A program made the position numbers and the translations under genes. This document shows positions 1 through 10,740 of a DNA stretch of 64,000 bases, in pieces. Under the pieces are notes generated by a model. The model had not been told where the DNA came from. It searched no databases and saw nothing but the letters and a program-made list of their open reading frames with translations. The stretch spans positions 1-64,000 of the forward strand of contig JBJHCF010000007.1 in the NCBI GenBank assembly GCA_050506795.1, read 5' to 3'. The stretch's first letter is position 1, and each line of letters opens with the position of its first letter. This stretch comes from Opitutia bacterium (GTDB lineage Bacteria > Verrucomicrobiota > Verrucomicrobiia > Opitutales > T3Sed10-336).

Positions 1-125
1 TCTCATACAGTTGACCACCGCCTCGCCGCCTCCACTGCGCGACCGTTCAGAGGAGCCCGGTGCGAGAAAACCGCACGCCGGGATCTGCGAGGGGGCTCGT
101 CGGAAACGGCGAGTCCTACCTTAAT
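1..125 (+). mobile_element. 3' end of a group II intron (domains V and VI); the 5' part and any RT ORF lie upstream of the window
   Basis: 53-85 GAGCCCGGTGCGAGAAAACCGCACGCCGGGATC folds as DV (AGC triad, AC bulge). 90-122 forms a DVI hairpin (AGGGGGCTCGTCG-GAAA-CGGCGAGTCCT-A-CCTT) with bulged A118, 8 nt from a terminal AAT at 123-125. Confidence 0.85.
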
Positions 126-140
126 GCAGAAAAGAAACTT

Positions 141-509
141 ATGAGCTACGCAATAGGACTCACATCGGCCTTGCTCCTCATCGTATCCAGTGGATGCGAC
201 CACGGGACCGATCGGAAAGAATGGTCAGAGCCAGTGTTACCTCAAGAAACGGCAGAAACAGCCGATCTAACCGAAGCTATTTCGCTCAGCCTGGCCGAGC
301 TGGAGACCCGTTCTGAGAAGCCATCAGATTACATTCTGATCAAGGCGGAGCAGATCCTCGTGAACAACAAGTTTATCTGGCGTATCACCTTCAAGCCTAA
401 GGAACTCCTACCCGCTGATCCTTCGAGTGAGGTGATTGGAGTGGGTGGTGAGATATTTGTCAATGTTGACCCCGACACTAAGGAAACTACCCTAAGGCAC
501 GGGGAATAG
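141..509 (+). CDS. Hypothetical lipoprotein, integron cassette gene
   Basis: ATG 141 in frame with track ORF 60-509; signal peptide with lipobox-like LLLIVSSG-C; followed by attC-like site. Confidence 0.7.
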   Translation: MSYAIGLTSALLLIVSSGCDHGTDRKEWSEPVLPQETAETADLTEAISLSLAELETRSEKPSDYILIKAEQILVNNKFIWRITFKPKELLPADPSSEVIGVGGEIFVNVDPDTKETTLRHGE

Positions 510-512
510 AAT

Positions 513-596
513 TGTGAACCAGACGGAGATTCCAACGGAATAACACGCCGGTGTTGAGCGGACGCAACAGGTCCGTGGCATTCCTCCACGTCTGCA
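513..596 (+). other. attC-like recombination site 1 (degenerate)
   Basis: R'' TGTGAAC just after stop; imperfect inverted arms GGAGATTCCAACGGA (525-539) / TCCGTGGCATTCCTCC (572-587); R' GTCTGCA (GTTCTGC minus one T). Confidence 0.6.
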
Positions 597-630: not shown

Positions 631-1149
631 ATGCAATATTTAATTCTCCAAAAGAATTCGCGAGTCGTAATGATTTGCGGCGTAACCGTGACCATTTTTC
701 TCTTAGTGTATATTTTTGCATTTGACACTTCACGCATCTCGTCACATCACTCTTTAATTCAAATCGATCTCGCAGGATTCTCCGACGACTCAAAAAAAGC
801 AGCCGAAATCGATAGGATCGTAGAGACCTTTTCCGTGTGGGCGAGTGATACGGGATTCAGACCTGTCACAGAACCGAACGAGAATACTCGTTTATCCGTC
901 TTCAAAACCGAGAACGATGAGGGTTTATCAGTCCATTACATAGAATCTCGCGAAGGAATGTCAGACTCAACAGAATGGCAGAAAGAAGCCGTGTTATTCT
1001 CCTACTTAGGTAATCGTCGTATTACTATATCTATTAGCGAAGGTTTGAGTAAAGAACCAACGCTGGAACTGCATCGCATGCACGACGATTTACTCATGCG
1101 ATTAAATGTGAGGAATCCCGGGAAGGTATCACATGCGACGATATGGTAG
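631..1149 (+). CDS. Hypothetical protein with N-terminal membrane anchor, AT-rich cassette gene
   Basis: 172 aa ORF, hydrophobic N-terminal segment, bounded by attC-like sites. Confidence 0.65.
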   Translation: MQYLILQKNSRVVMICGVTVTIFLLVYIFAFDTSRISSHHSLIQIDLAGFSDDSKKAAEIDRIVETFSVWASDTGFRPVTEPNENTRLSVFKTENDEGLSVHYIESREGMSDSTEWQKEAVLFSYLGNRRITISISEGLSKEPTLELHRMHDDLLMRLNVRNPGKVSHATIW

Positions 1150-1170: not shown

Positions 1171-1236
1171 GCAGAACCATTCAGTGGACTCAACGAGATG
1201 GGCTGGCGCCAATCGCGAGTCACCTCTACGCTCTAC
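1171..1236 (+). other. attC-like recombination site 2 (degenerate)
   Basis: R'' GCAGAAC; L'' GTGGACTCAACGAGAT pairs with L' ATCGCGAGTCAC with an extra-helical G; R' GCTCTAC. R'' is complementary to the GT(T)CTGC at the start of the same cassette, as expected for a circularisable cassette. Confidence 0.75.
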
Positions 1237-1518
1237 TTCCGCGTCTTCGAGCGAGACGGCTGGTATAACGCCCTGGCCAAGTACATCAATGATGGAGGTG
1301 TGATGTATCGCTCGCGAGATCCATTAAGCGGATTTGAACAAGGGCAGCGCATACTGCCGCGCGTGCGCCACATGGTGTTGTGGGAGCACGACGACATGCT
1401 CTACGTGTTCTTCTCACGCGGTAGGGACGAGCCAGAGCACATAATGGTCTCGCGGATCGAAAACCTTGATGATGTCTGGGAGGACTGGCAGTCACTGTGG
1501 TCGACGAATGAGGTCTGA
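1231..1518 (+). pseudogene. Internal gene fragment (YFRVF-containing, possibly beta-propeller/hydrolase-like), no own start
   Basis: Protein-like LYFRVFERDGWYNALAK...RVRHMVLW...LYVFFSRGRDEPEHIMVSRI begins abruptly at the attC boundary; the track ATG lies inside the attC. Confidence 0.4.
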
Positions 1519-1533
1519 TTCACCCTATCTCCG

Positions 1534-1734
1534 GGCCGAACCATACAGCGGGTTGTTGAAGCAGCATTGTCCGACCCAAGGGTGCCGTTCGTTATGGTCT
1601 GCGCTCGATTCGACAACCTCGCATCGCAGCGCGCCTTTGCCAAAGCGGGTTTTCGCACTGTTCGGGTGTTCGACGACGTCCCGAACGGGCGATACGCACT
1701 TATGGTGCGTGACTACCCGGAGGCCACTGAAACT
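1534..1734 (+). pseudogene. C-terminal fragment of a GNAT N-acetyltransferase
   Basis: DNLASQRAFAKAGF matches GNAT motif B (N.AS...f.k.GF); N-terminal half with the acetyl-CoA motif is missing; in frame with the downstream methyltransferase. Confidence 0.55.
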
Positions 1735-2598
1735 ATGAAAGAGCCCAATCCCCGTTTCTGGGACATTTTCTTTGAGGTCTACGAAAGCCTGCCCCGCCAA
1801 GGCCCCGGCAACCGTTCCTGTGTCGCCAGTGCTCTCGGCCTTTGCCACGAGCTGCCTCAATTCCCCGCGATCCTCGACCTGGGGTGCGGTGTTGGCGGAC
1901 AGTCCGTCCAGCTCGCCGAACTTACCTCGGGTTCTATCGTGGCAATCGACATTCATGCTCCGAGCATCGAGCGGCTGCGGGCGTCCATCGCGGAGCGTAG
2001 GCTCTCGCAGCGCATCAGTGCGATCGTTGGAGATATTGCCAGTCTAAAGCAACCCCATGAAAGTTTCGATCTCGTCTGGTCCGAAGGCGCGCTCTACAAC
2101 ATTGGTCTCCGGAACGCCATACACGTCTGCCATGGATTACTGCGCCCCGGCGGCTACCTTGCGTTTACTGATGCAGTTTGGCGCAAGGAGAATCCGCCTG
2201 CTGCAGTCAAGGCCAGTTTCGACCTGGACTATCCGACAATGGGATGGCTGGATGATGTTGTGGCAACGGTAACAAACTCCGGATTCGAACTCGTCGGGCA
2301 CTTCACCTTGCCTGATGAAGCGTGGTGGAACGACTTCTACACTCCAATGGAGACTCGTATTGCGGAGTTGCGCTGCAAATACGCTAACGATGTTGAAGTC
2401 TCGGCCATACTCGACAAACTCGCTGAGGAGCCCGAGATGCACCGCCGCCATTCCGACTACTATGCCTATGAGTTCTTTGTGGCACGCCGCCCCCTTGCAC
2501 AGTCGTCGACCGAGGTGATCGAACTGCTCGAACAAGGCGCACCAGAGGATGCGGACAAGCCGCGCTGCTCAGCTTTGACGATCAACAAATCGCCTTAG
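1735..2598 (+). CDS. Class I SAM-dependent methyltransferase
   Basis: ILDLGCGVGGQS motif I, FDLVWSEGALY, LRPGGYLAF; GGAGG RBS at 1719-1723 before ATG 1735; C-terminus reads through attC. Confidence 0.9.
   Translation: MKEPNPRFWDIFFEVYESLPRQGPGNRSCVASALGLCHELPQFPAILDLGCGVGGQSVQLAELTSGSIVAIDIHAPSIERLRASIAERRLSQRISAIVGDIASLKQPHESFDLVWSEGALYNIGLRNAIHVCHGLLRPGGYLAFTDAVWRKENPPAAVKASFDLDYPTMGWLDDVVATVTNSGFELVGHFTLPDEAWWNDFYTPMETRIAELRCKYANDVEVSAILDKLAEEPEMHRRHSDYYAYEFFVARRPLAQSSTEVIELLEQGAPEDADKPRCSALTINKSP
2527..2586 (+). other. attC-like recombination site 3 (degenerate R')
   Basis: CTCGAAC-AAGGCGCACCAGAGGATGCGG-ACAAG-CCGCGCTGCTCAGCTTT-GAC-GATCAAC; 60-bp layout of classical short attC sites, with GTT changed to GAT. 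Confidence 0.75.
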
Positions 2599-2657: not shown

Positions 2658-3065
2658 ATGGAACCGGTACTAATCGTTATTGGGATTGTTATCCTCGCAG
2701 TCGTGATTCGTTTAATTGCAGGGTCCTTCGACGGGGAGCGCGTTGAGCGTTATCTGCGCGATCAGGGATTCGAACTGGTAGATCGAAGTTGGGCCCCTTT
2801 CGGTCCAGGCTGGTTTGGCGAAAAGGATTCAAGGATTTACGAAATTATCTACAAGGATCGCGATGGAAGGGTTCATCGCGCGCATGTAAAAACATCGATG
2901 ATGAGTGGAGTCTACCTCACTCACGACCGAATTGTAGAGGATGTGACGAAACTCTCGGTTGATGAAGAGAAGGCGGCCCTGCGAAAACGCCTCGCCGAAC
3001 TTGAAGGCGAACCAGGCAGAGATAGCAGTGCGGAGAGGCGGATCGATGATGATCGGGTGCCCTAG
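2658..3065 (+). CDS. Small hypothetical membrane protein, cassette gene
   Basis: N-terminal TM helix, WAPFGPGWFGEK motif, coiled-coil tail; reads into attC-like site. Confidence 0.75.
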   Translation: MEPVLIVIGIVILAVVIRLIAGSFDGERVERYLRDQGFELVDRSWAPFGPGWFGEKDSRIYEIIYKDRDGRVHRAHVKTSMMSGVYLTHDRIVEDVTKLSVDEEKAALRKRLAELEGEPGRDSSAERRIDDDRVP

Positions 3066-3091
3066 GCGACGTGCCTGTCGAAACGTTTGGC
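3006..3091 (+). other. attC-like recombination site 4 (decayed arms)
   Basis: R'' GGCGAAC, R' GTTTGGC followed by AGA; residual pairing CAGGCA/TGCCTG. Confidence 0.5.
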
Positions 3092-3502: not shown

Positions 3503-4861
3503 ATGAAGCTCAAAGCGTTTAGCGGTGATTTAAAAACGGTGGATTATGTCGATTTTATGATGCTCGACATTTATGGCAGTATTCGCTCTGTCACGATACC
3601 AAAAGGACATGTGAGTGCGGAGATGCTCGAGGAGGGAATCGGATTTGACGCCTCGAATTACGGATTTGCCGACGTGTCGCAGTCCGACATGGTGGCGATC
3701 CCCGATTTGGAGACGGCCTTCGCCGAAGATCGCCCGGATGGAACCATTCTGCATACGCTCTGCAATGTTCGTGCTATGGATGGTTCGGTTTTCGAGTTTT
3801 ATCCGAGAAACGTGATCGCCAATGCAATGAAACAAATGCGGTCGAAAGGGTATGCGGATGACGCCCGGGTATTGATGGAGATCGAGTTTCACGTTCTCGA
3901 GGACGTCAACTATGCGACCGACTTTGCCCACTCCTATTTTCGCCTGCAAAGCGCAGAAGGAATCGGTCCCGATTATTACGACCTTCCCCGGTTTAACATT
4001 CATCGCGGGTATCATCGAAGTTACCCCGACGATCGTTACTTCGATTTGCGCAACGAGATGGTGAACGCCCTTACGGCAATCGGTATTCCCATCAAATACC
4101 ACCATCATGAGGTCGGTGCAGCGCAGTTGGAGTTGGAGTTCGACTTCCTGTCCGCCGAAGACGCAGCGGACAAAGTGGCGATCGCAAAGTGGGTCCTTCG
4201 CAATATCGCGAAGGAGAACAACGTCTTTGTGACTTTTATGCCGAAGCCGATCAACAAGACCCCCGGAAACGGAATGCACGTCCACCAGTTTCTGGTGAAG
4301 GGGGGAAAGTCGATCTTTCCCGGCGACCAGATCTTCGGCTTGAGCACCCGGGCTCTGCAATACACGGCCGGGTTGCTGGAGCACAGTTTGACCGGGTCGC
4401 TTCTTGCGTTCTCCAATCCCAGTACAAACTCATTCAAGCGGTTGGTTCCGGGTTTTGAAGCGCCGGTTAGCGCTACCTTCGCGAAGGCGTCTCGTGAGGC
4501 TGCCGTACGCATCCCCGGATACCTCAAAAAAGGCACAGAACGGATTGAATACCGCACAGGTGACGCGACGGCGAACTGTCACTTCATGCTGGCGGCTATG
4601 ATCCTGGCTGGTTTGGACGGGATCGAGCGAAAACTTGATCCGGTCGCGGCCGGTTATGCCAGTGCCGAAGGCGCGGAGAACCGTCGGTTTCCGCTCACTC
4701 TCCGGACTGTTCTCGATGGATTGCAGAAGGACAACAATTATCTCCAACCAGTATTCCCCCGGGAACTGATCGATCTCTGGACTTCGATGAAGCTGGAGGA
4801 GGCGAGACACGTGTACCACGCTCCCACCCCGGAGGAATACGAGTTGTATTTCAATGCCTGA
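3503..4861 (+). CDS. glnA: Type I glutamine synthetase
   Basis: GFDAS, HHHEVG, TFMPKP..GNGMHVHQ, KRLVPGFEAP, RIEYR motifs; AAAGGA RBS before ATG 3503. Confidence 0.92.
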   Translation: MKLKAFSGDLKTVDYVDFMMLDIYGSIRSVTIPKGHVSAEMLEEGIGFDASNYGFADVSQSDMVAIPDLETAFAEDRPDGTILHTLCNVRAMDGSVFEFYPRNVIANAMKQMRSKGYADDARVLMEIEFHVLEDVNYATDFAHSYFRLQSAEGIGPDYYDLPRFNIHRGYHRSYPDDRYFDLRNEMVNALTAIGIPIKYHHHEVGAAQLELEFDFLSAEDAADKVAIAKWVLRNIAKENNVFVTFMPKPINKTPGNGMHVHQFLVKGGKSIFPGDQIFGLSTRALQYTAGLLEHSLTGSLLAFSNPSTNSFKRLVPGFEAPVSATFAKASREAAVRIPGYLKKGTERIEYRTGDATANCHFMLAAMILAGLDGIERKLDPVAAGYASAEGAENRRFPLTLRTVLDGLQKDNNYLQPVFPRELIDLWTSMKLEEARHVYHAPTPEEYELYFNA

Positions 4862-5095: not shown

Positions 5096-8000
5096 TTAAG
5101 GTTGAACAGGAAACAGGACCTTAACCCTGAAAGATCGATGCGGGTCTTCTCCCGGTGTGTAGCCAGTGTTTACGCGCAGAGTTCCGTTCTGAATGGAATC
5201 AGGGACGTCGACTCGGCTATCAAAAATCGATTGACTCCAGTCGACCTGATCAGACGACGCGTGCACGACATAGGCAATATCGGAACGATTCCCGGGATAG
5301 GCGAACAGGAGCGTGGCCTCGCCGTCGTCCCCTATTTCCAGACGCGGCAATCCGGCTCGGGAAAGTGTACCGAAACCGAGATCAAAAGCATAGCGCAGAA
5401 GATTGGCTATTCCGATCCGCCCTGGATCGGCCGCAGGGCCGGAAATTCCGGGATCCGCGAGATCGGCCGGATCGGGGAACGCCATTTGCCGCCAGTCTCC
5501 GTAAGTCATCGCGCTGCTGAGGTAATCGACCGCGAAGGACTGCGCATCCAGTCCGTGACTCGGGCTGACAGTGCCATCAACGGCCTCTGAGGCTCGGTAC
5601 ACGTTCAAAAGCGCCCCATCCCGAAGTCCGCGCTCCTCGATTCGACGAATCCCCTGATCGAGTGCGTTTGGAAGTATAATACCCCAGTGCCTTTCGTTGA
5701 CCGCCACAATCTGGTCATAGAAGGTCGCATAACGCTCGTCCGTCCCGCTTCCCGTGATCTCCACGGGAACGGCCGCCAACGGACGTCCTTCGCCGTCTTC
5801 GTTGTCGTAAAACACAACAAAATTCCGGCTGGGGGAAACTGTTTCTCCCATAAAGCCACTTCCCTCCTCCAAACCGGATCCGAACGGGAGGACGGTGACA
5901 GGGAGCTCAGTGGTGAGATAATGGTGCAGTTCCTGCCCGTCGTCACCGTCGTTAAGAAGCAGGCGCACGAACACGGTCCCGCCTGGTGTAAACCGAGCGT
6001 TTCCTGACGGTTCGGTAACAAACCATCCCGCATAGGTTCCATCCGCGTCAGCGGTAAAGGTCAAGTGCCGCGAGCCATGGTCATCCGGTTGAAACCGGGG
6101 CGAGTCGGTATTGCGTATCCAGTCGGAGTTTTCGCCGGTAATCAGGATGGCATTTCCCGCGCCGTTCTGGTCGAGCGGGTCGTCCGGTACCACTATCCGG
6201 TTACCGTAGCGATAGGTGGACTCCGGGGTGAGCCCTTCTATTCGGAGGCGGAAAGCAAAAGGAATACGATCAAAATTGTCACCGCCGGCATCCTGATCGC
6301 CCTGTATGAAGAGAGGCATAATCTCCTCCCTAACCAGGACCGCCTGCACGGAAATAGTATCCTCCGATTCCAGTCCCCCGCCGGTGACGGTCAACGTGTA
6401 GACTCCCGGACTGCCGAATCGCACGTCGTCGAACACCGCCCTGCCCGCCTCCATGGGCGACGACAACGTTCCCGAGAGTTCCCCGGGACCGGAGGTGCGG
6501 GAAAGTGTCACCTCCTCCTCAAATGTCGGGTCCACCGCTCCATTATCCAGGAGAGCCTCGACGACAAAAGGGAACGTCGGGCGGTCCACCTGGACCGCGG
6601 CGGGCGCGGACTCAATTGCCAGTTTCGAGGCGACCGGCGGCACGGTTCCCTCCATGGGCACGGCTTCCAGAACGACATTATCAAAACGGTTGTTTCCGGA
6701 CGTTCCGGAAGCTTCCACACCCGTAAACCGGATACGTATGGCAAAGTCCGAATTGTCGTTCGCCGCGTGAACACCGGAAAAATCAAATTCCAGCACACGG
6801 TAGTCTTCAGTGACATTAATGGCATCGTGTTGCAGCGGCGTCCAATCCGCCTGGCCGGAAACCGTCCTGTATTCGATGGCCTGACCACGCGCACCGTTGG
6901 GCGTCCGCCGCACCGCGTAACTGAATCGAACCTGCTCATACCCGGTGGTGGGAAGATTAAACTGCAGCGTGCGGCTGTCGGAAGGATTACGGACGCGCAA
7001 CCCCTGGCCCGCGGAAGCCCCGAGGCGCGCATTCAGGTCCGTACCATCGGTATCGTCCATGTATCCCTCTCCCGTTCCCGGATGAGTGATCAACCCTGTG
7101 CCGGTGATGCTGTGGTCAGCCGGAACTTCCGACACCACGCCCCCGGTCAGCTCATTGAAGTGCCAGTAATGCAACGCAACCGGGGAAGCGGCTTCTACAA
7201 AAACCGCGGTCAAGGTTGTATTTTCCACAAGGTCAATGTTCACCGTGCGCAACCGCCGTGTTCTATCCGTCAATTCCTCCCAATGGGAAAAGCGGTATCC
7301 GGGGCGAGCCTGAGCTGTTACCTCAATAGGAACCTCCTGGAAATAACTCCCGGTCCATGGATAGGCCGAAGCACTGACTCCCGGAGTTCCGTAATCCACA
7401 TCAACCGAATTCACCCGAACGAAACCGGCGTCCGGATCCGAAACATTGAGGGTCAGCGCATTTTGGGAAAGGCTGAACTTCCCTCGCAGGTGTCCCCAGA
7501 CGTAAGCGGGACGCTGATTGGCGAAGTTCCTCATGTTATTGACGTGTCCCGACCAGTTCCCGGGACTCCCCCATCGATCCGCGTGATGAACGATTTCATC
7601 AGCCAGTCCGGCCTGCATCTCGTCGATTACACCGATCACGCGTTCGGGTAAAAACGCGGTGTTTAGCAAGTCGGCGAAACGATTAACGAATTCCTCCCGA
7701 AACTCCTGGTTCTCCAGGAGCTCCCGTAGGAGGAAGGTCGAAGCCGAACCGCGCCACCATTCGCTCGAAGTTTCGGTAACCGCTTCCAGAAGATTATAGG
7801 ATGCGCCGCGGCTATGACCGAATCCGAAATCGGTGTCAAAGAGGAGCCAACGCCAGCGGCCGTCGTGACCGTGGGGAGCAAAGGGATCGTATTCCTCCGC
7901 CTGGAAACGCCAGAAATCGTTATTGTTATTCGGCCAATCCGAATTGTTCACAAAAATCTGGGCGACATTGTAGTCGATGAAATTCCCGATATCGATGCGG

Positions 8001-10552
8001 GTCTTGATGTGTTCGTAATGCTCGGCGGCGGATAACCCGTTCGCTTCGATGTAGGCAATGGTTTGGTTATAATGATCGTCGCTCCCCTCCTTGACCGAAT
8101 GGGGGGAACTGGGACGAAACTCCAGGATATCCACCCGGTCCGGGTTGACCCCATAGGTTCGCGCAAGGTAATGCCTGTCGTAGCGTTCCCTGATATTGTG
8201 AATACCCCAATACTGCCCGTTCAGGTACACCACTGAAGGCCGATACGCCTGGGTGTCCATGCGCAGGTGCTTCACCAGGCGCTGCATCATCGCGTCCCGG
8301 AACATGGTTTGGGCATTGTCGTTGCCCGAGTTTCTCAGCAGCAGACGATTGTATTCCTCGTAAGGGGCGTCCGGGAACACCCGATGCGCGAAGCGGCTTT
8401 CGTCATACAGACTGCCCCGTGCGTAAAGCCTGAGTGACTTCTGTGGAAGATTTCGTGTCCAACCTCCGTGAATACGAATTCCCGCTTCCTGGGAGAAGCC
8501 AATCTCACCGTCGGGTTCAAAAAAAGTGACGTGCGCCGGTCTTTCCCACGCGTTTCCCTTCATCATAAAATTCGGGATTCCGGCGACGTCATTACTCCAA
8601 CCGGGAACGTAAATACCGTGATACCCGAACAGGTCCGGCTGCTCTGCGGCGATACTGATAACCGGCATATTGTATCGGTTCGCCACATTGGAATCGACGA
8701 TGTAGGTTTCGGTCGCGGTGGCGGACGGCAAATAACCCTCCTTGAATGCGCGAGCGCGCACCACGTTGGTCGCGCTGCCTTCCCGCGGCAGGTCGGGCAA
8801 CCCGCTAAACAGGGTTTCCCCTCCCAGCGAAGTGACCTCGATATCGCGGAAACGGACCTGGGTTTGCCACGTTCCCACCCCCACCTGACCGGTCATGTTG
8901 GGCGAGGAGGAATCATCGGTGAATGCAAAAATCAACTCGTCGTCGAGCCAGCATTCAAAGGTGTTGCCCTCGGCGCGGATGCGGATGTCGTACCAGACAT
9001 CGGTATCGACACTTCCGCTGGTTCGCATACCCTGGAACACGCTGTGACCGCCGGTTCCGTGCCCCTTTTCCAGGCCGTGGTCGACGTTACCCCATCCGCC
9101 ATAGTTCATCTGATAGTAGTTATCGCCGTCGACGCGGAAGAAAATCAGAAAACCCTCGTTGCCACCCGTCTTGCGAGCCTGGAGTGTCAGTTCGTAGTCT
9201 TCCCACTCGGTATCGCCGAACATCAGGTGGATGGCCTGCGCCAGGGAAGTTTGCACCAGTTCGTCGCCCTCGATATGCCAGTTCTCGTCCAACGGCGGTC
9301 CCTCACTGGTGTCGATGGTCAACGAACCCTCGTACAGAATTGAAGTCCGCGGTTGACCGTCCGGATCTCCTCCGACGTGCGCGGGATCGGGACGGGAGCT
9401 GTCCCGCGTGTAATAGATCTCCACGTCCGGGTCCCCGGTCGAGAGGGTCAACGCGAAGGGACTGGGGTAAAATCCCCCCGCATGGGAAAACTGAGGCGGA
9501 TCCAGAATTCCGGCGTAGCCGACGGCGTCGTTGTTGGATCGTCCGGGCGTCGATCGTTCAAAATAGACCCACTCGCCTCCCCCGTCATCGCTGCGACCGT
9601 AGGAGACATCGGGCGGCAACCGAATCGGCGGCACCGAATCCACAACCGTTCCGTCGGGCGCGGTCAGCTGCACGGCATTGCCGTCCTTGCTGATACTGAA
9701 GTTAGTGTGAAACCTGAGTTCCTCCGCCAGTATTCGGTGGGCGGGAATCGGCTCTTCCATGGTCCCGTCCGGAAGGCGCCAGCGCACGGTGAGGTGGTCT
9801 CCCCCTTCATGTTCCTTCTGCAGGGCGGTTATCAGGTACTTTTCACCGGCCTCGAGAAAAATCGGATCGGACTGCTGTTGGGAAAACTTATTCCACTGAC
9901 GCCAACTCGACCACTGGTCATCCGGAACATAAGCGATAGGGTCGTCATAATCGGCCACCGAGGTGGAGCCAGGCGGATCCAGGTAAAGACGGCCCGCGTC
10001 GTCGCTGGCGATCCAGAAGACGTACTCGCCGGTTTCGGGGGGCACGATATACCCCCGCATCCTAGTCCCGTAGTGGTCGTCGATGTCTCGCGGCGCTTCA
10101 AAATAATCGGTCACAAGGTTCCGGCTATCGGGTCGATCCGGGTAGATCGCGTGGTCGAGGAGCACAGACATAATACGACTTGGAAGACCGCGATAAACTT
10201 CGCGCCAGATACCGGTCAATCTCTCGCCCTGAGCGGGCCGTCGGTCCTTGCCTGAAGTCCAGACCAGCAGGTGTTCGCCCGGACCGAGGGTCCAGTCGGA
10301 GAACACCCATTGAAAGGGGTCTTCCGGGTCGTCGGTCAGGCCGTATCCGGCCAGGTTGATGGCGCTTTCGCCCCGATTGTAGAGTTCAATCCAGTCCTCA
10401 TAATCGCCATCCTCGTCGAAAACCGTGGTGCTGTTGTTACCCGTGAGCTCGTTAATCACCAGGTCGGCTCGCACCGAAAACGGTGTCAGCAGGAGAAGGG
10501 CAAAGCCGAGGACAAAGAGAACGGACGTAGCTGAGATTTTTCGTTCAAACAT
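5096..10552 (-). CDS. Large secreted CotH-kinase family protein (lamin-tail domain split by PA14, FN3-associated/chitobiase-like region, DUF1080-like lectin domain, CotH kinase, C-terminal putative sorting domain)
   Basis: Signal peptide after ATG 10552; LVINE..DEDGDYEDWIELYN (LTD); GEYVFWIASDDAGRLY..QKEHEGGD (PA14); RIHGGWTR..QKSLRLY, YLNGQYWGIHNIRE, NSDWPNNN, WRWLLFDTDFGFG (CotH). Confidence 0.88.
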   Translation of the reverse strand: MFERKISATSVLFVLGFALLLLTPFSVRADLVINELTGNNSTTVFDEDGDYEDWIELYNRGESAINLAGYGLTDDPEDPFQWVFSDWTLGPGEHLLVWTSGKDRRPAQGERLTGIWREVYRGLPSRIMSVLLDHAIYPDRPDSRNLVTDYFEAPRDIDDHYGTRMRGYIVPPETGEYVFWIASDDAGRLYLDPPGSTSVADYDDPIAYVPDDQWSSWRQWNKFSQQQSDPIFLEAGEKYLITALQKEHEGGDHLTVRWRLPDGTMEEPIPAHRILAEELRFHTNFSISKDGNAVQLTAPDGTVVDSVPPIRLPPDVSYGRSDDGGGEWVYFERSTPGRSNNDAVGYAGILDPPQFSHAGGFYPSPFALTLSTGDPDVEIYYTRDSSRPDPAHVGGDPDGQPRTSILYEGSLTIDTSEGPPLDENWHIEGDELVQTSLAQAIHLMFGDTEWEDYELTLQARKTGGNEGFLIFFRVDGDNYYQMNYGGWGNVDHGLEKGHGTGGHSVFQGMRTSGSVDTDVWYDIRIRAEGNTFECWLDDELIFAFTDDSSSPNMTGQVGVGTWQTQVRFRDIEVTSLGGETLFSGLPDLPREGSATNVVRARAFKEGYLPSATATETYIVDSNVANRYNMPVISIAAEQPDLFGYHGIYVPGWSNDVAGIPNFMMKGNAWERPAHVTFFEPDGEIGFSQEAGIRIHGGWTRNLPQKSLRLYARGSLYDESRFAHRVFPDAPYEEYNRLLLRNSGNDNAQTMFRDAMMQRLVKHLRMDTQAYRPSVVYLNGQYWGIHNIRERYDRHYLARTYGVNPDRVDILEFRPSSPHSVKEGSDDHYNQTIAYIEANGLSAAEHYEHIKTRIDIGNFIDYNVAQIFVNNSDWPNNNNDFWRFQAEEYDPFAPHGHDGRWRWLLFDTDFGFGHSRGASYNLLEAVTETSSEWWRGSASTFLLRELLENQEFREEFVNRFADLLNTAFLPERVIGVIDEMQAGLADEIVHHADRWGSPGNWSGHVNNMRNFANQRPAYVWGHLRGKFSLSQNALTLNVSDPDAGFVRVNSVDVDYGTPGVSASAYPWTGSYFQEVPIEVTAQARPGYRFSHWEELTDRTRRLRTVNIDLVENTTLTAVFVEAASPVALHYWHFNELTGGVVSEVPADHSITGTGLITHPGTGEGYMDDTDGTDLNARLGASAGQGLRVRNPSDSRTLQFNLPTTGYEQVRFSYAVRRTPNGARGQAIEYRTVSGQADWTPLQHDAINVTEDYRVLEFDFSGVHAANDNSDFAIRIRFTGVEASGTSGNNRFDNVVLEAVPMEGTVPPVASKLAIESAPAAVQVDRPTFPFVVEALLDNGAVDPTFEEEVTLSRTSGPGELSGTLSSPMEAGRAVFDDVRFGSPGVYTLTVTGGGLESEDTISVQAVLVREEIMPLFIQGDQDAGGDNFDRIPFAFRLRIEGLTPESTYRYGNRIVVPDDPLDQNGAGNAILITGENSDWIRNTDSPRFQPDDHGSRHLTFTADADGTYAGWFVTEPSGNARFTPGGTVFVRLLLNDGDDGQELHHYLTTELPVTVLPFGSGLEEGSGFMGETVSPSRNFVVFYDNEDGEGRPLAAVPVEITGSGTDERYATFYDQIVAVNERHWGIILPNALDQGIRRIEERGLRDGALLNVYRASEAVDGTVSPSHGLDAQSFAVDYLSSAMTYGDWRQMAFPDPADLADPGISGPAADPGRIGIANLLRYAFDLGFGTLSRAGLPRLEIGDDGEATLLFAYPGNRSDIAYVVHASSDQVDWSQSIFDSRVDVPDSIQNGTLRVNTGYTPGEDPHRSFRVKVLFPVQP

Positions 10553-10740
10553 ATTGTAGAATAACAATTTCCCAATCCAGGGACATTCCGTGCGGACATC
10601 AAGAAGCCCCCTCGATTGTCGAGGGAGCATCCGGGACGCCAGGAAGCGCCCAATATATATATCACATCTCGCCGCGCCTATAACGGCTGATCAAACCGAA
10701 ACGGGATTGCCTTGGGTGGGTGGAGTCATTCAGGTCAGGA

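Follow-up and report, generated by a model that had tools for sequence, protein, structure and literature searches.

Group II introns of a probable class E lineage in the R' box of integron attC sites, traced from an intron tail at the head of a decayed cassette array

The opening bases of a contig from an Opitutia bacterium raise the question of which kind of group II intron can settle in an integron cassette array, at which base of the attC site it inserts, and what becomes of the site afterwards. The window, meaning the whole stretch of 64,000 nucleotides that was analysed (contig JBJHCF010000007.1 of assembly GCA_050506795.1), belongs to contig C7 of genome G000, and other C and L numbers denote contigs and loci. 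Its base 1 is the start of the contig, and positions 1-125 are the 3' end of a group II intron on the + strand, 15 nt upstream of the first gene of the array (Table 1). In the text accessible from two reviews, class C is named as the sole lineage that targets attC (PMC4424553, PMC8876359). The explanation that we regard as probable, taken as a whole, is that the tail belongs to a class E clade that targets attC, inserts in the R' box, leaves the site intact and joins the downstream cassette.

Table 1. Features of the intron tail, the cassette array and its flank in the window
Feature	Position	Strand	Remarks
RT/maturase ORF, last codons and stop	1..14	+	bases 3-14 read S-Y-S-stop; remaining ORF unassembled
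Domain V (DV)	53..86	+	34 nt; AGC triad 54-56; 5-nt GAAAA loop 66-70
Domain VI (DVI)	89..125 (start about)	+	bulged A at 118 (-8); intron terminates AAT at 125
3' exon	126..140	+	GCA, read as final three bases of split R' box; then A-rich leader of first cassette
Cassette gene 1	141..509	+	122 aa, without Pfam family
attC 1, degenerate	513..596	+	attC covariance model, 17.3 bits, E 0.11
Cassette gene 2	631..1149	+	172 aa, GC 0.43 (low), without Pfam family
attC 2	1171..1236	+	attC model, 23.8 bits, E 0.003; R' core mutated (GCT for GTT)
Class I SAM methyltransferase ORF within array	1567..2598	+	PF13649, E 9e-17
Last cassette-like gene	2658..3065	+	135 aa, without Pfam family
Possible degenerate last attC	3006..3091	+	by-eye reading (R'' 3006-3012, R' 3085-3091); folds as hairpin
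Glutamine synthetase-like gene, chromosomal flank of array	3503..4861	+	TIGR00653, E 1e-111, below family cut-off

The hallmarks of a group II intron are present in the tail, namely the DV catalytic triad, a DVI with its bulged A, and an AY end, which confirms the non-IIC intron end that had been recognised from the letters alone. The Rfam model RF00029 scored 41.5 bits against window 51-125 (gathering threshold 40), and the fold of 50-125 reached z -4.1, with none of 200 shuffles equally good. The 3' boundary at 125 is marked by the C79 copy described below, whose identity stops at 126, and by relatives that diverge past the same base. The RT ORFs of relatives finish ISYL-stop or LSYK-stop at the same distance to DV as the S-Y-S-stop of the window. 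Beyond the boundary, the 3' exon begins GCAGA and a 15-nt leader runs to the ATG at 141. A 5-nt DV loop has been described as a class E trait that is common to class F (PMC3753933).

The array that follows is a real but decayed attC cluster. Between attC 2 and the methyltransferase ORF, remnants of genes occur in window 1198-1735 with no attC detectable among them, which points to decay of the array. A last attC ending near 3085 had also been proposed; its letters are present, and the 3006-3091 site is weakly supported, with no match to the attC model and an attC grammar p of 0.34. Farther along, the - strand carries an 1844-aa ORF (5096-10630) that contains several repeated modules and, at its N-terminus, a signal-like segment. 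The two integron integrase genes of G000 are both located on contigs other than C7. On C50 and C31 (L304, L102:2360-4340) a complete integron was seen, with intI, an attI-like site, toxin-antitoxin-like cassettes and an antisense class C intron; the class C intron of the C31 array was considered as an IIC-attC element and dropped, since an IS66-like element interrupts its 5' end.

The 125 bases of the tail also open contig C79, where an identical copy is followed by a non-cassette flank, and G000 thus holds two identical 3' ends. Two intron 5' ends, identical over 92 nt, terminate contigs C49 and C72. Both begin with GTGCG, the start that the sequence-only reading expected upstream. Neither the intron body nor the RT expected with it was found in the assembly; contigs of run X1, at a likeness of at least 80%, covered 26 of the 30 bins into which the intron of the closest relative (described below) was divided, and they gave neither an EBS1 nor a link to a junction. 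Both 5' exons end ACGTT(C/T), and both 3' exons begin with G. On C49, a 299-aa alpha/beta hydrolase gene is followed by an L'-like box and a spacer, after which GTTC abuts the GTGCG of the intron; the left arm of this site is degenerate, with no attC-model match and a grammar p of 0.085. The C72 exon ends ACGTTT within an antisense ORF, without attC (grammar p = 0.91). By eye, with no Pfam match of note, the interrupted ORF at C72:128-457 appears to lie in a pilus or type II secretion-like operon, and its other half was not found. On C79 the junction lies about 50 nt away from the end of an AraC-like gene; this contig cannot hold the other half of the C72 ORF, so that a third intron copy or a rearrangement is likely.

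Four joins of C49 or C72 to C7 or C79 can be drawn. Synteny did not settle the pairing (1 of 11 family genomes each), and folding did not clearly separate the four, although C49-C7 alone folds as one long bottom-strand hairpin pairing the R-box ends. It could be argued that the 5' end of the window copy is C72 or an unassembled third one, and that the junction arose by recombination between copies, not in an interrupted attC; the C72 ORF half that C79 cannot carry, which calls for more than two copies or a rearrangement, and the poor separation of the folds would agree with this. We consider such an origin improbable, since C49 ends in a cassette-like gene with L', spacer and GTTC, C7 starts with a typical cassette leader, the long hairpin arises from C49-C7 only, and the 3' junction would in any case still stem from an attC insertion. 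The best join is most likely C49-C7, which would yield an R' box GTTC/GCA and link the hydrolase cassette to the window array. Joining the exons in this way, as had been suggested, would give an attC-like right arm, with a left arm that is degenerate.

As the intron body, EBS1 and RT of the window copy are unassembled, its class and EBS1 rest on its closest relative. This is a full-length copy at L043:4103-6101 in genome G005 of the same family, 96% identical to window 31-125 and lying within an attC that the model scored at 41.9 bits. With 125 nt and an inferred join, the window locus is a poor exemplar, and further study is better based on L043:4103-6101. In the L043 array, two sister sites free of introns read GTTC-AGG and GTTC-TGG, which places the split after GTTN. 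G005 carries five such intron 3' ends, and the flank differs at each.

The RT of this relative has 478 aa, matches TIGR04416 with 355 bits (cut-off 300), and has RVT_1 as its only Pfam domain, without an endonuclease domain (En-minus). In a quick tree of 92 rows it fell, together with the E1 reference Kl.pn.I5, into a clade of 78 rows (SH-aLRT 98), and in a careful tree, built from 41 of the 92 RTs and holding Kl.pn.I5 as its single labelled class E reference, the grouping stood at 91/90. Class labels were taken from the available parts of PMC3522654 (Tables S2-S3), PMC3552965 (Tables S1-S2) and PMC5027574. In the careful tree, the attC-type introns and retargeted branches form a 22-row clade (100/99). 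For the features by which class E is recognised in DI, namely alpha' at the tip of a DId3 stem-loop and an additional bulge in DId3, an MFE fold (z -0.74) gave no guidance. With moderate support, from the relative's RT and one E1 reference, the lineage of the window intron would be class E, outside E1, in line with the IIB-like lineage that had been proposed. A class C intron, like IIC-attC or the top-strand case of Enterobacter cloacae, is suggested by the association with attC sites, yet for the closest relative this is refuted: a clade forced with class C, including the IIC-attC intron Kl.pn.I3, was rejected for two RTs of that relative (AU p = 3.7e-5), the triad is AGC and not CGC, DV has 34 nt, EBS1 has 6 nt, and relatives lie on the top strand at R'. 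Nested in the attC clade is a branch (L049, L082, L086, L125) with EBS1 AAGAGU or AAGAUU that inserts after GA(C/T)TCTT, and its position in the tree points to retargeting away from attC.

Target recognition can be followed from the EBS1 loop in DI, whose six bases pair with exon positions -1 to -6 in 54, 52, 56, 53 and 49 of 58 introns and, at the sixth position, in 33 of 57, with covariation through all four pair types at each position; for this set, 17 of 75 aligned 5' ends were dropped as internally deleted or tandem copies. The EBS1 of the attC group reads (T/G)AAC(G/A)N, with a one-base shift in the subgroup that splits after GTT, and that of L043 (GAACGU) matches the last six exon bases perfectly. 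The pairing with the attC right arm that had been predicted was accordingly found in the relatives. For EBS2, a 6-bp pairing with IBS2 is possible in L043 (p = 0.01), and covariation is weak overall. An adaptation of EBS2 to attC was considered and set aside: candidate loops favoured intron-free attC arms over random sites in 12 of 12 attC-type introns, and likewise in 4 of 4 introns of other types, with loops unparsed in 11 of 23 attC-type and 20 of 24 other introns. The EBS3 column pairs in 33 of 44 introns, in an uncertain register. The junctions of the relatives show insertion into the top strand, in the orientation of the cassettes, with the R' box split after GTTN, or after GTT in the sister group. 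The sense orientation proposed for the window copy is thus borne out in relatives, and the proposed split after GTTNN is replaced by GTTN (GTTC/GCA), or GTT in the sister group.

Enrichment for attC was assessed in groups of introns defined by EBS1, which is located inside the intron. By a grammar score, 16 of 24 attC-type introns had upstream an R''-L''...L' palindrome that exceeded the 95th percentile of the values at 3000 (C/T)GTT sites in genomic sequence; the score was hand-tuned, and 13 of 14 held-out intron-free sites pass it. A second scorer, for which GTT was not required, found the palindrome in 16 of 24 attC-type introns vs 3 of 31 introns with another EBS1, so that the anticipated enrichment of attC flanks among homologues was upheld; either scorer was passed by 19 of the 24, and 5 passed neither. 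From the grammar set, group A (28 rows) had lost one false 5' end (L143) and three flanks shorter than 70 nt, and group B (47 rows) four short flanks and 12 deleted copies without EBS1, 3 of which passed. The attC covariance model, of Verrucomicrobia type and trained on 15 intron-free sites, matched with default filters at 9 of 24 attC-type junctions and at four further junctions, and all 46 model matches, in 37 loci, share the strand of the intron. A strict genome-wide attC rule was swamped by other repeats, and a rule based on ORF context gave only 5 sites and was then loosened.

On the 3' side, 41 junctions of introns with the DVI type of the window begin with G in 24 cases and with C in 16. 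An ORF starts within 30 nt of the junction in 25 of these 41, in 21 of 115 other introns and at 15.8% of random sites, and a same-strand attC lies within 1.5 kb downstream in 14 of 33 junctions with longer flanks (training sites account for 5 of these). Because introns that are related are not independent of each other, all these figures are given as counts and not as tests. Neither an RT in class C nor a lack of attC enrichment among homologues was observed, and the probable 5' exon of the window copy, assigned through the C49-C7 join, is an attC-like right arm; the three outcomes that the sequence-only reading had named against itself did not arise.

The motif ACGTTYG occurs 1161 times in G000, so EBS1 and EBS3 alone cannot explain the enrichment, and there must be something more that narrows the choice, whether EBS2, the attC hairpin or selection. 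The last of these leads to an alternative in which the intron inserts at any ACGTTY/G and its attC copies merely persist as neutral, genic ones being purged. This is in keeping with the abundance of such sites, with the G000 5' end (one of two) that interrupts an ORF in antisense, with the weak covariation of EBS2 and with the five attC-type introns that fail both scorers. We find it unlikely as the whole account, somewhat less so than a recombined junction. EBS1 stays (T/G)AAC(G/A)N across RTs that are only about 47-50% identical, and it matches the GTTN-ending hexamer of intron-free attC sites, 18 of 28 of which read ACGTT followed by A, C or G; antisense and other intergenic neutral sites are plentiful, yet they are rarely occupied. 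Survival and targeting can both be partly true.

On the preferred explanation, targeting by a class E clade, the ribonucleoprotein would reverse-splice into the top strand through EBS1/IBS1 and EBS3/IBS3 pairing, and cDNA synthesis would be primed at the replication fork, by analogy with other En-minus introns (PMC4424553). In the R boxes only AAC and GTT are conserved, and crossover takes place between C and A on the bottom strand of R' (PMC2727003). The intron would enter 3-4 nt beyond the G/TT crossover, on its downstream side, where the GTG or GTGC of the intron itself would complete the R' box, so that the attC would keep its four boxes; one intron-free site in G000 already reads GTTCGTG. 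The intron would become the 5' part of the downstream cassette, be transcribed with it, and could splice out of its leader. Class E introns have been described to self-splice in vitro by hydrolysis, without a need for EBS2 (PMC3753933). It had been proposed that the intron blocks cassette excision while present. This found no support, since the GTT triad and both L boxes survive, and R''/R' pairing averages 4.69 of 7 at 16 occupied sites vs 4.68 at 28 intron-free ones; judged from these features, an occupied attC should remain usable for recombination.

A further proposal, attractive and no more than tentative in our view, is that the clade hitch-hikes on cassettes: the attC would stay recombinogenic, and IntI would excise, shuffle and transfer the intron, which would serve as leader to the cassette downstream of it. 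Moreover, if an attC-borne copy recombined with one located elsewhere, attC could become attached to new genes. If true, such recombination would be a sense-strand route to the birth of cassettes, and with IIC-attC and the CL1 lineage at least three independent captures of attC by group II introns would have occurred, with a different base chosen in each. Targeting by a class E clade that uses ordinary EBS pairing on the opposite strand would represent convergent capture of a niche that is repeated, mobile and harmless, and it offers direct ways to test whether introns travel on cassettes and to address the origin of cassettes, which is an open question.

The premise that described attC introns are all of class IIC and on the bottom strand was contradicted by the literature. 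Among accessible texts on attC and on named introns, non-IIC introns in cassette arrays were found in Sonbol and Siam (2021; PMC7923331) alone, where the CL1 intron UHB.I2 lies in sense directly at attC and two class E fragments have attC-like structures upstream. The accessible text of that paper defines no class E insertion site or lineage, and its supplementary figures S5-S10 may show junctions. The introns H.ha.F1 and H.ha.F2 of a Halorhodospira halochloris CALIN (PMC7923331) are, like the window clade, class E, En-minus and in cassette orientation, and their listed proteins resemble the L043-type RT by eye, so they probably belong to the same clade; they were described there as 5'-truncated, with neither insertion point nor EBS1/IBS1 in the text accessible, whereas full copies of the window clade define both. 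UHB.I2 (CL1/IIB1) is likewise non-IIC and sense, and by its coordinates it shares 2 nt with the predicted attC; it differs in RT class, and the overlap implies a split after GTTNN, as opposed to four or three R' bases in the window clade (PMC7923331). Non-IIC introns in cassette arrays had thus already been reported, and what is defined here, from sequence, is the predicted class E target site and its EBS1 pairing.

The IIC-attC introns (S.ma.I2, Kl.pn.I3) resemble the window clade as group II retroelements that colonise attC. In contrast, they have a class C RT and a CGC triad and insert into the bottom strand at R'' (TTGT/T), antisense, with a hairpin in place of IBS2 and the gene parted from its attC (PMC3001079, PMC4424553, PMC8876359, PMC7923331). 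The window clade inserts in sense at R', has an EBS1 of 6 nt and does not separate the gene from its attC. An Enterobacter cloacae IIC intron (Rodriguez-Martinez 2012, cited in PMC7923331) shares the top-strand sense position in attC, but it is class C and a single case. Kl.pn.I5 (class E1; PMC3522654) is En-minus and shares the wider RT clade (91/90), but it falls in a separate subclade, has 37% identity to the relative's RT and occupies an intergenic non-attC target.

Intron matches were obtained in 43 of 401 genomes of the order, and a metagenome scan with the DV motif, blind to flanks, yielded at least 122 loci. Viral contigs gave one match. Among 72,556 plasmid records the intron was not found, the best identity being 45.1%, and in consequence nothing so far points to its playing a part in clinical integrons. 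At L057 (G639:C588), in a MAG labelled Burkholderiales, there is an RT that branches within the Opitutales introns; the 3' exon is GGCAG, and an attC lies downstream. The placement reflects either horizontal transfer or misbinning. Of 401 genomes in the phylum of G639, 2 had matches with an E value of 1e-110 or lower, and G639 is one of these two.

Several forms of the intron were encountered besides full copies. Internally deleted mini-copies that keep both ends occur at attC-like sites (L078, L119, L026, L176), three of them within 3.3 kb at L078, and in tandem copies (L165, L185, L196, L285) one intron starts immediately after the last base of another. In two genomes, remnants of related introns (L025, L026, L040) carry a short REP-like hairpin as an insertion within their DV loop. 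Finally, a 31-nt motif ending CTCGTTCGG is present seven times in G000 (C12:36311, C12:74068, C34:22804, C4:138515, C46:36760, C50:1941, C61:8304) and also in two relatives (L025, L027). In four cases it is followed by a 5'-truncated remnant of a window-type intron and then a cassette-like gene, and two copies lie downstream of intI genes, facing these. The motif is possibly an attI-like or island-boundary site that is also struck by the intron.
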